64,000 nucleotides of DNA from Escherichia phage Killian: the sequence record OQ446694.1; one strand, written 5' to 3'. The notes beneath the pieces were generated by a model that worked only from the letters and a program-made list of their open reading frames with translations, made no database searches and had not been told where the DNA came from. The translations under genes were made by a program, and so were the position numbers. Positions 39,226 through 52,526 of this stretch are shown piece after piece. Each line of letters opens with the position of its first letter. The first letter of the stretch is position 1.

Positions 39226-39438
39226 TCATTTTTGTCCTGTATTTACTTTATGCCGATGCACGGCCTTAACTTTATCAAGGTATTTTTCAAAATTTCGCAA
39301 TCTAGTATAGTCTGCCGGAGATTGGTTGAGTGATACTTCTCGACGCAAAGCTGAAATGATATTTCCAACTTCCCTACGAATTTCATCTAATTGAAGAACA
39401 GTAAGATTGCGAAGTTGCTTTTCAGTTAATTGTAGCAT
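39226..39438 (-). CDS. hypothetical small protein
   Basis: 70 aa ORF. Confidence 0.4.
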
Positions 39439-39480
39439 ATATACCCCTTTAGTTAGATAAACCTATTTATAACTTTTGCA

Positions 39481-40062
39481 CTAACCGAGCTTTTTAGTTA
39501 ATTCATTCCAATGTTTTCTGCACAAAGAAACATAAATTTCATCACCAATACAGATTTGATTACCTTCTTTAACTGGTGTTCCATCTTCCATTAATCGAGC
39601 CGTCATAATCGCTTTTTTACCGCAATGACAAACTGCCTTTAGTTCAATAAGTTTATCTGCAATCGCCAAAAGTTCTTTAGAACCTTCAAATAATTTTCCG
39701 GCGAAATCAGTCCTTAGACCATAAGCCATAACAGGAACATTATATGTATCAACAATTCGACTTAATTGATGCACCTGTCCAGTTTTTAAAAACTGGGCTT
39801 CATCTACAAATACACAATGAATATCTTTTTGTGCTTCAGCCCATTTATAGAACTCAAAAATATCCATATCATCCGTAATAATATTCGCTTCCTGCTTAAT
39901 TCCAATACGAGAAACGACTTCACAGACAGAATCGCGAGTATCAATAGCAGGCTTAAGAACTAATACACCCATTCCACGTTCTTTATAATTATGCGCAGCA
40001 GTCAAAAGAGAAGCAGATTTTCCAGCATTCATTGCTGCATAAGTAAAAATTAAACTCGCCAT
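39481..40062 (-). CDS. tk: thymidine kinase
   Basis: 193 aa; P-loop AMNAGKS; C-terminal Zn cysteines; T4 length. Confidence 0.9.
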   Translation of the reverse strand: MASLIFTYAAMNAGKSASLLTAAHNYKERGMGVLVLKPAIDTRDSVCEVVSRIGIKQEANIITDDMDIFEFYKWAEAQKDIHCVFVDEAQFLKTGQVHQLSRIVDTYNVPVMAYGLRTDFAGKLFEGSKELLAIADKLIELKAVCHCGKKAIMTARLMEDGTPVKEGNQICIGDEIYVSLCRKHWNELTKKLG

Positions 40063-40071
40063 ATCACCTTC

Positions 40072-40257
40072 TTAAAGCGTATTCACATAAGCTATTAATT
40101 CGTTTTCTTTCTTATCAAACCGATCAGCAAATTCTTCTTGTTGATCGGGAGATAGCGGGCCGTATTCATCATAAAAGGTGTTTGCTTCTGTATGCTCATC
40201 TAGAAGTTCATGGATAAGCTCAAACAATTTATCTTTTTGTTCTTTACTCAGACTCAT
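40072..40257 (-). CDS. hypothetical small acidic protein (tk.1-like)
   Basis: 61 aa ORF. Confidence 0.45.
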   Translation of the reverse strand: MSLSKEQKDKLFELIHELLDEHTEANTFYDEYGPLSPDQQEEFADRFDKKENELIAYVNTL

Positions 40258-40427
40258 ATATTAATTTCCAGGAGTTTTAAAATAATTCGCTTTTGCTTAA
40301 ATATTTCCATAGTTAAATGACCAGTATCTTTTTGACCGATTCCAATGGCAAAACCTTTATTGACAGCGAGTTCAATTAAATTATCAAGCTCACGTAACAC
40401 TTCATATTGTAACTCAAAACTATTCAT
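40254..40427 (-). CDS. hypothetical small protein
   Basis: 57 aa ORF read by hand; ATGA start/stop overlaps on both sides. Confidence 0.35.
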   Translation of the reverse strand: MNSFELQYEVLRELDNLIELAVNKGFAIGIGQKDTGHLTMEIFKQKRIILKLLEINI

Positions 40428-40636
40428 TTCGGTTTACCTTCTTTAACGAAATCGGGATAAGGATAAAATCCTGAATAAAATCCTTCACCTTTATGATTGA
40501 TGCATCCTTTATTAGAACAATAGCACCAATAATCGAAATCACAAGCCATTTCATCATTACATAAAGCAAAAACAACTGGCCATTCACACTTTTCGCAGTG
40601 GGCATTTTTAAGAATACTTGTTTGGCTCATAACCAT
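40424..40636 (-). CDS. Cys-rich small protein (putative Zn-binding)
   Basis: track ORF 40424..40651 trimmed; CEKCEW...CYCSNKGC cysteines. Confidence 0.4.
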   Translation of the reverse strand: MVMSQTSILKNAHCEKCEWPVVFALCNDEMACDFDYWCYCSNKGCINHKGEGFYSGFYPYPDFVKEGKPK

Positions 40637-40839
40637 GTAACCTTTAAACAATATTCTTCTACGTGTTGTTTACGACCTTTCTTATCAATAAAGTTATATT
40701 CAACGAATGTTCCAATATAGTCTTTATCTACACCATGTGGACTATTAATTGGGCATTTAGTACGGCAAATGCGTTCCCATTGACGAATAATTTCCACTTT
40801 GTTTTTAGGATCAAACGGATGCGGGTAATGTACTTTCAT
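40627..40839 (-). CDS. hypothetical small protein
   Basis: 70 aa ORF. Confidence 0.4.
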   Translation of the reverse strand: MKVHYPHPFDPKNKVEIIRQWERICRTKCPINSPHGVDKDYIGTFVEYNFIDKKGRKQHVEEYCLKVTWL

Positions 40840-41290
40840 AATCCACCACTATTAAATCAATATCAGGAGTAAACATGTCGATTAATTTAGAAACCTTATC
40901 CCAATCGCCGCCAGCAATACCGCAACCTATACGTGGAATGTAAATTACTGGTTTAAACAAAAGGGTTTCTGCCTGTAGATTTAATTCTATCATGCAGTTT
41001 ACTAAAGCACCATAATCAAGATTAGGACCCGGTTCGTATTGTGTATACAGGTTATAGCATATACTAAATCCCGTAGGACTATGTTTAAAAACAATAGACA
41101 TATCGCCTAATTTATCACGAGAACCGTACTCGGTAGTGGTTTTATCTATTTCTAAAATTTTGGGATAGGCTCTTGCTAATTGACCCGCTACGCCAGAGCC
41201 CATTGTGTGGAAGCAATTGCACCCGTGCGCAATAATATTACCTTGAAGAAATAGGGCGACAATATCGCCCTTGATATATTTTACAATCAT
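40811..41290 (-). CDS. macro domain protein (ADP-ribose binding/processing family)
   Basis: 159 aa; GCNCFHTMGSGVAGQ resembles the macro-domain nucleotide-binding signature. Confidence 0.6.
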   Translation of the reverse strand: MIVKYIKGDIVALFLQGNIIAHGCNCFHTMGSGVAGQLARAYPKILEIDKTTTEYGSRDKLGDMSIVFKHSPTGFSICYNLYTQYEPGPNLDYGALVNCMIELNLQAETLLFKPVIYIPRIGCGIAGGDWDKVSKLIDMFTPDIDLIVVDYESTLPASV

Positions 41291-41634
41291 CTAGTACTCA
41301 ATCCTCGATTATAAGAATCTACTAAACGGTCAACCATTGAATGACAAGCGGCTTTATCTTTCTCCTCCGCAACTGAACATTCTAAGGTATTCCACTTTTT
41401 AGCATATCGTTTTAACAATGTATCATTTTTGTATCTGCTTGATTTATCTCTTTCTCCGTCTTTATATGCATATATTAATTTCTGCGCAAATTCAGCTTGG
41501 CATGCTTTATTTTTCCCACAATAATCCGCGGCAGTACGGTTTACATACTCTCTAATTTCAGTATATGATGTATCTGCTAACGCAGAAGCAGAAAATGAAA
41601 TTAATCCTATACATAAAACCAAAATTTTAGTCAT
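41287..41634 (-). CDS. vs: Vs valyl-tRNA synthetase modifier-like protein, with signal peptide
   Basis: 115 aa (T4 Vs length as recalled); position between tk.x and regB. Confidence 0.5.
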   Translation of the reverse strand: MTKILVLCIGLISFSASALADTSYTEIREYVNRTAADYCGKNKACQAEFAQKLIYAYKDGERDKSSRYKNDTLLKRYAKKWNTLECSVAEEKDKAACHSMVDRLVDSYNRGLSTR

Positions 41635-42172
41635 TTACTATTTCCAAAAGTTTATTATTTTTAAGGTAATTAGCCTTTTCTAGGACTTCAGAAGCATATT
41701 TAGAACCTGCTTTAACATTCCATCCCGAATTATAAGAGGATATTGCTTTTCTTATATCGCCCTTATGTATATTTAACCAATAAGAAAGTTCAATGTACGC
41801 CCAGGAAGCTGAATTGGACCGTTTATTCAACATTCTTTTTATTTCAGCATCGGTCATATTATAACCAAGTTCCTTAACTCTCGCTCGCATAGTAGGCAAA
41901 TAATTTTGGAACATTCCATAGGCATGATGCTTTGGTTTAGATTTTAAATTAACTCCGGCAGAGCTTTCTTGCCACAAAATAGCAGCCATTATATGACCTA
42001 ATCCGCTCTTGTGGATATTTTTGTGTGTTTTATATTTTCCATCCTTAGAAAATTGTTCCCCGAATTGATATGCGTAACGCATGTTATCGAGTTGGACATT
42101 ACTGAAAGTATGCTCGGAGCTATGCGCCATCATTGAAATGGCCAATAGACCAGCGAGTAGTGCTTTTCTCAT
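41627..42172 (-). CDS. secreted lytic transglycosylase-like protein (vs.1-like)
   Basis: 181 aa; signal peptide; ILWQESSAG and SYNSG motifs typical of SLT domains. Confidence 0.55.
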   Translation of the reverse strand: MRKALLAGLLAISMMAHSSEHTFSNVQLDNMRYAYQFGEQFSKDGKYKTHKNIHKSGLGHIMAAILWQESSAGVNLKSKPKHHAYGMFQNYLPTMRARVKELGYNMTDAEIKRMLNKRSNSASWAYIELSYWLNIHKGDIRKAISSYNSGWNVKAGSKYASEVLEKANYLKNNKLLEIVND

Positions 42173-42179
42173 GCTTACC

Positions 42180-42641
42180 TCATTGAGTTTTAATTACTGC
42201 TTTAGAAGCCTTTCCTGGTAAACGACGACTGTTAATAATTGCCATCCTACATTGAAGTGACGGGTCTTTGAACTTCGCATTAGGTTTACAAACTGTAAAT
42301 CCAAGCCAAAGATTTCCATCTGTGATTTCTAAACGTCCAGGACGGTATTCAACCCCATCAATAAAATCCTCATCAATGTCAGGCCGCGGAGGCATACTCA
42401 GGAATTCATTAACTTCTAAAACATGGTCTTTTATTTTGTGGAATAATTCAAAAACATATGTCTCATCAATCTCCCGCTGAATTGCACGATCAAGAAGATG
42501 CTGAGAATATTTTAGATGAAACGATGAGACTCCTGCTGCTTTTGATGCCTCACGAATCTCATTGTTAATTTGACGAAACTCCGACTCAAAATGACGACGG
42601 AGTTTATTTCGACGGATAAAAACTTCTGTGTTGATAGTCAT
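42180..42641 (-). CDS. regB: RegB site-specific endoribonuclease
   Basis: 153 aa, MTINTEVFIRRNKLRRHF...; T4 length and position. Confidence 0.7.
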   Translation of the reverse strand: MTINTEVFIRRNKLRRHFESEFRQINNEIREASKAAGVSSFHLKYSQHLLDRAIQREIDETYVFELFHKIKDHVLEVNEFLSMPPRPDIDEDFIDGVEYRPGRLEITDGNLWLGFTVCKPNAKFKDPSLQCRMAIINSRRLPGKASKAVIKTQ

Positions 42642-42666
42642 GTTATTCTCCTCTTAACTGATAGAA

Positions 42667-42700
42667 AAATTATACCACAGTCAAGAGGAAAAGTAAACAG
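42667..42700 (-). promoter_or_regulatory. T4-type early promoter upstream of regB
   Basis: -35 GTTTAC, -10 TATAAT. Confidence 0.5.
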
Positions 42701-42979
42701 TTATTCTTTAAATCTAATCAATTTATTCATAGACTTTGAAACTTCTGCACGAACCTCATGTAAATTTTTGAGTTGCTCAAGACGCTGCGCATAGTAAGCA
42801 ATTTCATCTTCTTCGAGACAGTCCTGTGAATCTTCTTTAAGATAACGCGCATAGTCCTGGAAAGCGTTACGGACTACTTCCTGGAAGTCATCAAGACTTT
42901 GAATTTTCTTAGGAGCAACAGATACACGACGAGGGGCAGTATAATACTCATAACCAAACCCTGCGCTTAATTGAGCCAT
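42701..42979 (-). CDS. hypothetical protein (vs.3 position)
   Basis: track ORF trimmed to [13 protein letters not shown] start. Confidence 0.4.
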
Positions 42980-43245
42980 TAATATTTTTCCTCTGGTTGG
43001 AACACAGCACGACAAGCCCACATACTGGCTTCTTTGAGTTTCGTTTTAGCAATAGTTAACTGATCAAGACTTTCAGCATAATTCTTCGCGAATTCACAGT
43101 CTTCACAATTATCTAGCGCTTCCCAGAATTCATCATATAAAGCATCAAAGATAAGTCCTAAACGAACTTCAGCATCTTTGATAGCATTCACTTTACTGAT
43201 TTTATCGTCAGTATGTGGCTTATAACCTTTAATGTCTTCAATCAT
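42979..43245 (-). CDS. candidate Acb2-like cyclic-oligonucleotide sponge (vs.4 position)
   Basis: 88 aa; second ORF after regB, as T4 vs.4; assignment by position and size only. Confidence 0.4.
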
Positions 43246-43459
43246 ATTTTACTTCCTCACCTGTTCCCAAATCGTATTCAACTAAACGAATAGGTTCATG
43301 AATGCCATATCCTTGAACAGAAATTTCTGTCGTAGGATAAATTCCATTAATATCACCCATGTTCCACGCTTCATTAAATTGCTGTTCGCCTGAATTACTA
43401 AACCACTCGGCGAAAGCATTTAGCACATCTTCAGAACCTTCAATAATTATCTTTGCCAT
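43238..43459 (-). CDS. hypothetical small acidic protein (vs.5 position)
   Basis: 73 aa ORF. Confidence 0.4.
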   Translation of the reverse strand: MAKIIIEGSEDVLNAFAEWFSNSGEQQFNEAWNMGDINGIYPTTEISVQGYGIHEPIRLVEYDLGTGEEVKYD

Positions 43460-51241: not shown

Positions 51242-51318
<77 letters not shown>

Positions 51319-51321
51319 TAA

Positions 51322-51987
51322 TTAAAATTTCATTTTTCGACCTTTAAACCATCCTTCTGGAATTGGGTCAGTTTTCTTAATACGTTTAGAAACTTTTTCA
51401 TCTAATGAATGAATCCACATCATACCAAATTGGGAATTCTTTTCGCCCTGTTGATGTTTATTTCTGGCGTGAGATTCTTTCATTTTATTAATAGTTTCAG
51501 GAGTATGGGTCTTGCCCAAGAAAGATTTAGTATTTAAAAATTTCTCTCTATACTTAGGATTATCCCAAAGCTGTTTAAACCTTTCTGAACCCATTTTACG
51601 ATATTTTTCTTTAAGGTCTGGGTCGTTCTCAAATCTGGTTTTAAAAGCGGCAGCTCCTTTTAAGGAAGCTTCTTTCTTTTTATCCAAATATTCTTTAGTG
51701 TTTAAATGGTCCCAACCACCTTCACCACCTAATTTCAAATTATAAACATCAGGGCGCTTTAAAAACTCTTCAGTCACAATATTCTTTTCTGACTCAAACA
51801 TAGAGGTTTTATCGTCAAAGAACTCTAATATTTCTTTAGAAAAATTTTCTATACCATACTTATCTTGGGCTCTTTTTAATAATTTACCAGAACCCATATA
51901 TCCATCATCTAAATTTTCGGTAGAATGAGCGCCTATATAGATTTTATTATTAATTTTATTTGTTATTTTATAAATGTAATGGAACAT
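51322..51987 (-). CDS. segB: GIY-YIG homing endonuclease (SegB-like) inside the tRNA island
   Basis: 221 aa; YIYKITN...KIYIGA GIY-YIG motif; lies between tRNA subclusters as T4 segB does. Confidence 0.65.
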   Translation of the reverse strand: MFHYIYKITNKINNKIYIGAHSTENLDDGYMGSGKLLKRAQDKYGIENFSKEILEFFDDKTSMFESEKNIVTEEFLKRPDVYNLKLGGEGGWDHLNTKEYLDKKKEASLKGAAAFKTRFENDPDLKEKYRKMGSERFKQLWDNPKYREKFLNTKSFLGKTHTPETINKMKESHARNKHQQGEKNSQFGMMWIHSLDEKVSKRIKKTDPIPEGWFKGRKMKF

Positions 51988-52028
51988 AAATATCTCCTAT
52001 TTCTAAGAGTATTTATGTTCCCAAAATA

Positions 52029-52100
52029 TGGCCCTGGGTGGAATTGAACCACCATCTGGCGATTATGAGTCGCTTGCTTGAACCTTCCAGCTACAGGGCC
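52029..52100 (-). tRNA. tRNA with CAU anticodon (Ile-lysidine type or Met)
   Basis: hand-folded; acceptor GGCCCTG/CAGGGCC; anticodon loop CTCATAA. Confidence 0.6.
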
Positions 52101-52106
52101 TTGATA

Positions 52107-52179
52107 TGCTGATTGACGGAATCGAACCGCCGACATCCTCATTACAAGTGAGGTGCTCTACCTACTGAGCTAAATCAGC
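52107..52179 (-). tRNA. tRNA-Thr (anticodon UGU)
   Basis: hand-folded; anticodon loop CTTGTAA; T-arm GGCGGTTCGATTCCGTC. Confidence 0.7.
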
Positions 52180-52186
52180 GAAATTA

Positions 52187-52273
52187 CGGAGGCGATAGGA
52201 TTTGAACCTATGAGTCGCCGGAGCGACTGCCGGTTTTCAAGACCGGTGCATTAAACCACTCTGCCACGCCTCC
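52187..52273 (-). tRNA. tRNA-Ser (anticodon UGA)
   Basis: hand-folded; long variable arm; anticodon loop CTTGAAA. Confidence 0.7.
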
Positions 52274-52275
52274 AG

Positions 52276-52349
52276 TCTCCGCGGCAGGATTTGAACCTGC
52301 GACATTCTGCTCCCAAAGCAGACGCTCTACCAAACTGAGCTACACGGAG
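52276..52349 (-). tRNA. tRNA-Pro (anticodon UGG)
   Basis: hand-folded; anticodon loop TTTGGGA; T-arm GCAGGTTCAAATCCTGC. Confidence 0.7.
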
Positions 52350-52361
52350 TAAATTAAATTT

Positions 52362-52433
<72 letters not shown>

Positions 52434-52439
52434 AAACTT

Positions 52440-52526
52440 TGGTACGAGAAGTGGGACTCGAACCCACAAGGAAATCATTCCGCAGCATTTTAAGTGCTGT
52501 GCCTTTACCAATTTGACCATTCTCGC
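52440..52526 (-). tRNA. tRNA-Leu (anticodon UAA)
   Basis: hand-folded; long variable arm; anticodon loop CTTAAAA; CCA encoded. Confidence 0.7.

Follow-up and report, generated by a model that had tools for sequence, protein, structure and literature searches.

What is the function of the 159-residue protein encoded between vs and tk.3 in Escherichia phage Killian, and does it act against a host defence? The DNA analysed here, called the window throughout, is a stretch of 64,000 nucleotides from sequence record OQ446694.1, and the features that bear on the question are collected in Table 1. A sequence-only reading had called the protein a macro-domain protein in the interval between tk and vs, and had suggested that it might reverse ADP-ribosylation of DNA by DarTG systems. 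The open reading frame exists as that reading described it and lies on the minus strand, and the glycine-rich motif on which the assignment had been based, GCNCFHTMGSGVAGQ, occupies residues 23-37.

Table 1. Positions of tk.4, of its neighbours and of the features within it, numbered along the window.
Feature	Position	Strand	Remarks
tk	39481-40062	-	98% identical to T4 Tk; tk.4 lies upstream of tk
Divergent allele patch	40806-41225	.	47-77% nucleotide identity to T4; flanking 60-nt bins 85-100%
tk.4 / adfM ortholog	40811-41290	-	159 aa, single-domain macrodomain, 17.5 kDa, pI 5.0
Overlap of tk.4 3' end and tk.3 start	40811-40839	-	29 nt, out of frame
Loop 2, phosphate-binding	40901-40936	-	Residues 119-130 (PRIGCGIAGGDW); invariant P119, G122, G124, W130
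Gln84 codon (CAA)	41039-41041	-	Position of the catalytic Lys in TARG1 (K84), DarG (K80) and PhiKZ gp104
Loop 1, ADP-ribose pocket	41180-41227	-	Residues 22-37 (HGCNCFHTMGSGVAGQ); invariant H22, G23, N25, C26, G33, A35
ATGA overlap of vs stop and tk.4 start	41287-41290	-	Arrangement also in T4
vs	41287-41634	-	99% identical to T4 Vs
vs, vs.1 (SLT-like), regB	41287-42641	-	Co-oriented, upstream of tk.4

The window belongs to a Tequatrovirus (T4-like) genome, and the 3.3-kb stretch around the gene is 98.5-99% identical to that of numerous T-even phages of Escherichia, Shigella and Yersinia. The gene order on the minus strand is regB, vs.1, vs, the 159-aa frame, tk.3, three small frames and tk. 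The placement in the tk-vs interval is thus correct, with the frame lying between vs and tk.3 and upstream of tk, and this is the position of tk.4 in T4. The T4 protein (NP_049723), which has 155 residues, aligns with the window protein without gaps over its full length of 155 residues at 58% identity, and the locus vs - tk.4 - tk.3 is common to both phages. By position and by full-length homology, the window frame is orthologous to T4 tk.4. The T4 record is labelled 'phosphatase; contains A1pp phosphatase motif', and PHROG 335, which holds the tk.4 family, likewise carries the name 'phosphatase'.

The junctions of the gene are partly those of T4. Translation of tk.4 is likely coupled to that of vs through the ATGA overlap at its start. 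At its other end, T4 has a 4-nt ATGA overlap between tk.4 and tk.3, whereas the overlap in the window is 29 nt. The window protein has four additional C-terminal residues (PASV) relative to T4 Tk.4, and the final five residues of its structural model have a pLDDT below 50. The chain of small genes linked by ATGA start/stop codons that the sequence-only reading described is present downstream (40254-40257, 40424-40427 and 40627-40630) and also at 41287, but it is interrupted at the tk.4/tk.3 junction. The true start of the 75-aa frame of this chain is most likely the ATG at 40630, which would give a product of 68 aa, because its Pfam match spans residues 8-75 of the longer frame. Upstream, vs, vs.1 and regB are probably carried together with tk.4 on one early transcript from a promoter-like site at 42669-42697, upstream of regB, which matches at 10 of 12 positions and has an extended TG. 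That site is a mere candidate because such matches are no commoner than in shuffled sequence, and a scan of 39300-43300 found no enrichment of promoter-like sites over shuffles. A terminator scan over the same interval returned four terminator-like sites where 2.1 were expected (sd 1.4), a marginal excess. On both strands it flagged a perfect 8-bp GC-rich hairpin (AGGGCGATATTGTCGCCCT) at 41253-41271, in codons 7-13 of tk.4 and close to the 5' end of the gene; the hairpin could be a matter of chance or could form an mRNA structure near the translation start.

The surroundings differ from T4 in other respects as well. The interval from tk.3 to tk (40063-40630, minus strand) has a gene content unlike that of T4, which has tk.2 and tk.1 there. 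In the window tk.1 is missing, tk.2 is represented by a homolog of 61 aa (54% identical, DUF7438), and there are two additional small genes, one of 57 aa (PHROG 3452) and one of 68 aa (Pfam Phage_zn_bind, PF23895). Phage T2 has frames of 57 and 68 aa in the corresponding place, matched by length alone. Farther away, at 51242-52526 on the minus strand, lies a cluster of seven tRNA genes with specificities for Arg, 'Met' (CAT anticodon), Thr, Ser, Pro, Gly and Leu. The tRNA with the CAT anticodon is probably a lysidine-modified Ile tRNA. T4 has eight tRNA genes, and a tRNA-Gln seems to be absent from the window cluster.

The assignment to the macrodomains is upheld by several kinds of comparison. 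The protein exceeds the gathering threshold of the Pfam Macro family (PF01661), scoring 33 bits where 22 are required (E=6.4e-8), over positions 2-117 of the 118 in the profile. In a sequence search of the PDB, the closest entries were Bacteroides BT1257 (~4e-10), yeast Poa1p (1e-9) and Streptomyces SCO6735 (8e-8), with weaker matches to Mycobacterium tuberculosis DarG (3e-5) and human TARG1 (0.009). A profile built from 74 homologs raised these to 6e-19 for BT1257, 5e-17 for TARG1, 2e-15 for SCO6735 and 5e-12 for DarG. An AlphaFold2 model computed from 73 homologs was confident (pLDDT 93.9, pTM 0.89), and the window protein as modelled has the three-layer alpha/beta/alpha macro fold. Among PDB structures, Foldseek ranks TARG1, BT1257, Poa1p, DarG and SCO6735 highest for this model (probability 1.00, TM 0.69-0.78). 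Among the 50 PDB matches listed, 47 are natural macrodomains and three are designed serine hydrolases (probability 1.00, TMq 0.57-0.78), and viral MacroD-type domains rank lower than the five named above. The Pfam, PDB sequence and profile, and Foldseek matches therefore place the protein in the ALC1-like/TARG1-like class of macrodomains. Both pocket loops for ADP-ribose are conserved, so that it is a predicted ADP-ribose binder.

What such a protein might do in a T-even phage has recently been addressed by genetics in T4. DarTG2 is a defence system that ADP-ribosylates phage DNA. T2 and T4 lacking adfA and adfN were found to be still DarTG2-resistant (PMC11825919), which predicted another factor, and the result on tk.4 filled that gap. 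In a preprint of November 2025 (HIDEN-SEQ, bioRxiv 10.1101/2025.11.20.689424), a T4 transposon library was screened on E. coli expressing DarTG2, and tk.4 was the single significant hit. T4 became sensitive to DarTG2 once tk.4 had been cleanly deleted. The authors renamed the gene adfM and go no further than saying that removal of the ADP-ribose from DNA by an enzyme 'seems likely'. The knockout plating on DarTG hosts that had been offered as a check of the window protein has thus already been published for T4, with sensitisation as the outcome, and the suggested reversal of DarTG-type DNA ADP-ribosylation agrees with these genetics, which were obtained with another allele, 58% identical. The counter-measures of T-even phages are layered, with AdfA and AdfN directed against DarTG1 and Tk.4/AdfM against DarTG2. 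Two further observations concern the locus in T4 and T2. In the same screen, vs, directly upstream and ATGA-coupled to tk.4, was the T4 gene most strongly depleted in minimal medium (10.1101/2025.11.20.689424). A T2 RIL-seq preprint detected the Tk.4 protein and found that the host sRNA ArcZ pairs with tk.4 mRNA, and mislabels the gene 'putative thymidine kinase'. Apart from this, literature searches that covered other names for the T4 protein turned up no work on it beyond the HIDEN-SEQ preprint. The macrodomain annotation dates from the T4 genome annotation and the role against DarTG2 was published in 2025, so both are already known; the glutamine-type centre, the divergent allele and the NAD+-cluster context described below are refinements rather than discoveries.

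The allele carried by the window is not the one that was tested. Window and T4 agree at 98-99% for Tk, Vs, Vs.1 and RegB and at 90% for Tk.3, against 58% for Tk.4. In sliding identity, the edges of the divergent patch are sharp, with flanks of 95-100% nucleotide identity; one edge lies within the first third of tk.4, on its 5' side, and the other at the tk.4/tk.3 junction. Both versions are common in the phage collection, with about 275 phage records holding the window-type allele (at least 90% nucleotide identity) and about 224 the T4 type. T2, T4 and T6 carry the T4-type allele, and therefore the published phenotype concerns an allele other than the window's. All of the residues invariant in the family (14 of them, H22, N25, Q84 and G124 included) are common to T4 Tk.4 and the window protein, which makes the same function reasonable to expect, and at the level of catalysis the window allele presumably shares it. 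The divergence of the alleles may reflect adaptation to differing DarT2 variants, or it may be ordinary T-even mosaicism.

The conserved residues were defined on two sets of homologs. In the first, 74 database sequences with 38-97% identity to window Tk.4, the residues H22, G23, N25, C26, G33, A35, D49, N80, Y82, Q84, P119, G122, G124 and W130 are invariant in all 74. The second set comprises 79 IMG/VR loci (35-99% identity), found by peptide patterns that excluded residue 84; in these, Gln84 is present in 79 of 79, Asn25 and Gly124 each in 78 of 78, and His22 in 69 of 78. The remaining nine homologs in the His22 column carry Gln, a natural variant at the counterpart of SCO6735 H24, a residue believed to be important for activity. 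Residue N25 aligns with N23 of the PhiKZ AdfM.

Gln84 is the residue that sets the family apart from the lysine-type enzymes. A profile alignment puts it opposite the catalytic Lys84 of TARG1, and a MAFFT alignment puts it opposite the lysine of the FPTK motif in Thermus aquaticus DarG, M. tuberculosis DarG and PhiKZ gp104. The partner residue of TARG1, Asp125, is replaced by Ala126 in window Tk.4. The same column holds Gln in BT1257 and in SCO6735 (Q85), and the window residues H22, N25, Q84 and G124 correspond to SCO6735 H24, N27, Q85 and G128. For this comparison the SCO6735 chain was rebuilt from HMMER alignments with a numbering offset of 20, and K34, K89 and G128 then agree with PMC9411070. 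The sequence-only reading had counted on conserved catalytic residues: the lysine of DarG and TARG1 is missing, its place taken by Gln84, while the SCO6735 set is complete. With a Gln at the lysine position and these residues shared, the Tk.4 family is most SCO6735-like, not DarG-like, and we infer from the alignments that its chemistry would likewise be SCO6735-like rather than DarG-like.

SCO6735 is the most informative precedent. On DNA it cleaves off ADP-ribose that is linked to thymidine, and it shields cells from DarT (PMC9411070). Activity is abolished in the Q85A and Q85E mutants and depends on N27 and G128 as well, a G128E mutant being inactive; the proposed mechanism is initiated by water in place of the lysine route (PMC9411070). 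SCO6735 (5e3b) and BT1257 (2fg1/2afc) are lysine-less ALC1-like proteins with Gln at the catalytic-Lys position, as in window Tk.4, and all three are orphan single-domain proteins. The His, Asn and loop-2 Gly on which SCO6735 activity depends are all present in window Tk.4 (H22, N25, G124). The differences are that SCO6735 and BT1257 are cellular rather than phage proteins, only about 27-28% identical to window Tk.4, and that the motif at the Gln is NLYTQ in the window as against NMIGQ. The K34E/K89E double mutant of SCO6735 has strongly lowered activity on a protein substrate (PMC9411070), and neither lysine is conserved in window Tk.4. A bacterial homolog of Tk.4 in Pelagimonas is an orphan gene like SCO6735, and its neighbourhood contained no darT and no other informative neighbour.

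DarG (T. aquaticus 5m31, M. tuberculosis 5m3i) has its fold, its class and the loop-1 Asn in common with window Tk.4, and, going by the T4 genetics, a common opponent in DarT2; it differs in having Lys80 in FPTK where the window has Gln84 in NLYTQ. Membership of Tk.4 in the DarG family was considered and rejected. The match to NCBIfam NF048014 reaches 28.6 bits against an equivalog cut-off of 250 and covers only positions 2-142 of the 338 in the model, which is the macro half. There is no catalytic Lys, no C-terminal DarT-binding domain and no neighbouring darT, the adjoining genes being vs and tk.3. The PADLOC DarG match to window Tk.4 is weak (E=3.4e-7).

Independently, PhiKZ gp104 has also received the name AdfM. 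This macrodomain is localised to the nucleus, strips an oligonucleotide in vitro of the ADP-ribose that DarT2 has attached, and is impaired by N23A (Cell Reports 2026, PMC13309987). Like Tk.4, it is a phage-encoded stand-alone macrodomain that counters DarTG2. We rejected placing Tk.4 in the family of the PhiKZ protein, since BLASTP between them gives 23 bits and gp104 has the FPTK lysine in contrast to Gln84. The close relative of gp104 is rather M. tuberculosis DarG (E=9e-25). The name AdfM now covers two unrelated clades of one fold, and in-vitro proof of activity exists for gp104, whereas activity of the Tk.4 family is predicted from sequence and genetics.

Poa1p (an ADP-ribose-1''-phosphate phosphatase, 6lfq-6lfu) and TARG1 (4j5r) are of the ALC1-like/Poa1p-like class and, as top fold matches, resemble window Tk.4. 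An HxCNC motif is common to Poa1p and the window protein, and PRIGCG to TARG1 and the window protein, with the Gln84 position occupied by Ser in Poa1p and by Lys in TARG1. Poa1p H23 aligns with H22, and by a hand count in the aligned motif S30 falls at Thr29; H23 and S30 are the residues targeted in deposited Poa1p mutants.

We consider it fairly probable that window Tk.4 is an orphan antitoxin-like enzyme that opposes DarTG2 by hydrolysing the marks made by DarT2 through an SCO6735-like centre. Tk.4 would be made early in infection, translationally coupled to vs. The host toxin DarT2 would attach ADP-ribose to thymidines in single-stranded phage DNA, in TNTC motifs. Tk.4 would then bind the ADP-ribosyl-thymidine in the single-stranded DNA and hydrolyse the N-glycosidic bond, so that replication could proceed and the action of DarT2 would be cancelled. 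The centre would consist of His22, Asn25, Gln84 and Gly124, with Asn25 holding Gln84 and Gln84 positioning the distal ribose; water would make the attack, and there would be no lysine-Schiff-base route. The fold, the positional orthology and the residue pattern beneath this proposal are established by the present analysis, while the literature supplies the need for the T4 allele against DarTG2 and the cleavage of ADP-ribosyl-thymidine by a Gln-type macrodomain. Against it stand 42% of residues differing between the allele tested with DarTG2 and that of the window. SCO6735 K34 and K89 are not conserved, and the window protein is acidic (pI 5.0). At about 27% identity to SCO6735, the shared Gln could also mean common ancestry within the class and not a common substrate.

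An alternative substrate is brought up by more distant phages. In 10 of the 79 IMG/VR loci (L028, L029, L031, L034, L042, L043, L061, L064, L067 and L075; for example L043:1939-5311), a macro gene of the Tk.4 clade is flanked by an NMNAT-NUDIX gene on one side and a NAMPT gene on the other, all three in the same orientation. The macrodomains of these loci are 37-43% identical to window Tk.4 and are all of the Gln type. The product of one flanking gene is bifunctional, with a cytidylyltransferase-like and a NUDIX part (NadM/NatV-like), and that of the other is a nicotinamide phosphoribosyltransferase (NadV-like). The latter gene is itself variable: in L061 (3573-5912) the NAMPT-like frame has 779 aa in place of the usual ~467, with a mid insertion of ~300 aa that looks like an intein or a homing-endonuclease insertion, and in L034, L064 and L067 the gene is apparently split. 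The placement in an NAD+ cluster hints at a metabolite substrate, and because of it we keep alive a second reading, that soluble ADP-ribose derivatives are processed for NAD+ recovery. Tk.4 would hydrolyse ADP-ribose-1''-phosphate, O-acetyl-ADP-ribose or defence-generated ADP-ribose products and feed ADP-ribose/NAD+ recycling, and the effect on DarTG2 would be a secondary or additional activity. The old T4 label and the PHROG name point the same way, as does the standing of Poa1p among the best sequence and fold matches, with its HxCNC motif and the alignment of H23 with H22. We nevertheless judge it unlikely. The T4 knockout shows a phenotype specific to DarTG2, which modifies DNA; where the window protein has Gln84, Poa1p carries Ser; no NAD genes adjoin tk.4 in T-even phages; and the adjacency in the distant loci may reflect mere clustering of counter-defence genes. 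Degradation of Thoeris-type ADP-ribose signals, the other role raised in the sequence-only reading, gained neither support nor contrary evidence from the analysis.

ADP-ribose on protein or RNA would be another target, either as marks of host defence ADP-ribosyltransferases (ARTs), for example the mRNA-modifying CmdT type, or in tuning of the T4 enzymes Alt, ModA and ModB. T-even phages themselves encode three ARTs. The Alt and Mod enzymes modify arginine, and to our knowledge arginine ADP-ribosylation is not reversed by classical macrodomains; an Arg-specific macrodomain is known only as a distinct Legionella family. It does speak for such an eraser that TARG1 and SCO6735, which are ALC1-like, also remove Glu/Asp-linked ADP-ribose from protein (PMC9411070). 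The genetic data, however, include nothing that points toward protein or RNA marks. T-even phages are restricted by CmdTAC although they carry tk.4, and the paper on that system names no phage macrodomain that would act on it (PMC11618068). We regard this kind of eraser as quite improbable. Smaller still is the chance we give to a non-catalytic inhibitor, in which Gln84 would signify lost catalysis and Tk.4 would bind DarT2 or shield ADP-ribosylated DNA. The dead mutants SCO6735 Q85A, DarG K80A and TARG1 K84A each still inhibit DarT in vitro (PMC9411070), and co-evolution with a binding partner would be in keeping with the strong divergence of the alleles. But Tk.4 is without the C-terminal DarT-binding domain of DarG, SCO6735 needs Gln at this very position for catalysis, and the strict conservation of H22, N25, Q84 and G124 in homologs of 35-99% identity speaks for an active site that has been maintained. 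Hydrolysis of DarT2 marks on DNA is therefore the reading that we prefer.

A wider proposal, which we put forward tentatively as a possibility, is that the T-even AdfM is a mechanistically distinct, lysine-less thymidine-ADP-ribose DNA glycohydrolase, recruited independently of the Lys-type AdfM of the chimalliviruses. Among Tequatroviruses that are nearly identical otherwise, it would circulate in the form of at least two deeply divergent cassettes with 58% identity, each perhaps suited to a different DarT2 variant, and the clade in NAD+ clusters of other phages may also recycle released ADP-ribose.

DarTG systems stop phages through ADP-ribosylation of phage DNA, and recognising a tk.4 ortholog explains why phages of this kind should plate on DarTG2 hosts, an expectation that matters for the choice of therapeutic phages. 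The published DarTG2 phenotype covers one of the two common alleles, the T4 type. The points made here about the glutamine-type site, the alleles and the clades leave the basic picture unchanged; the Gln-type site, the two common divergent alleles and the two AdfM clades could guide biochemistry on substrate and toxin specificity.
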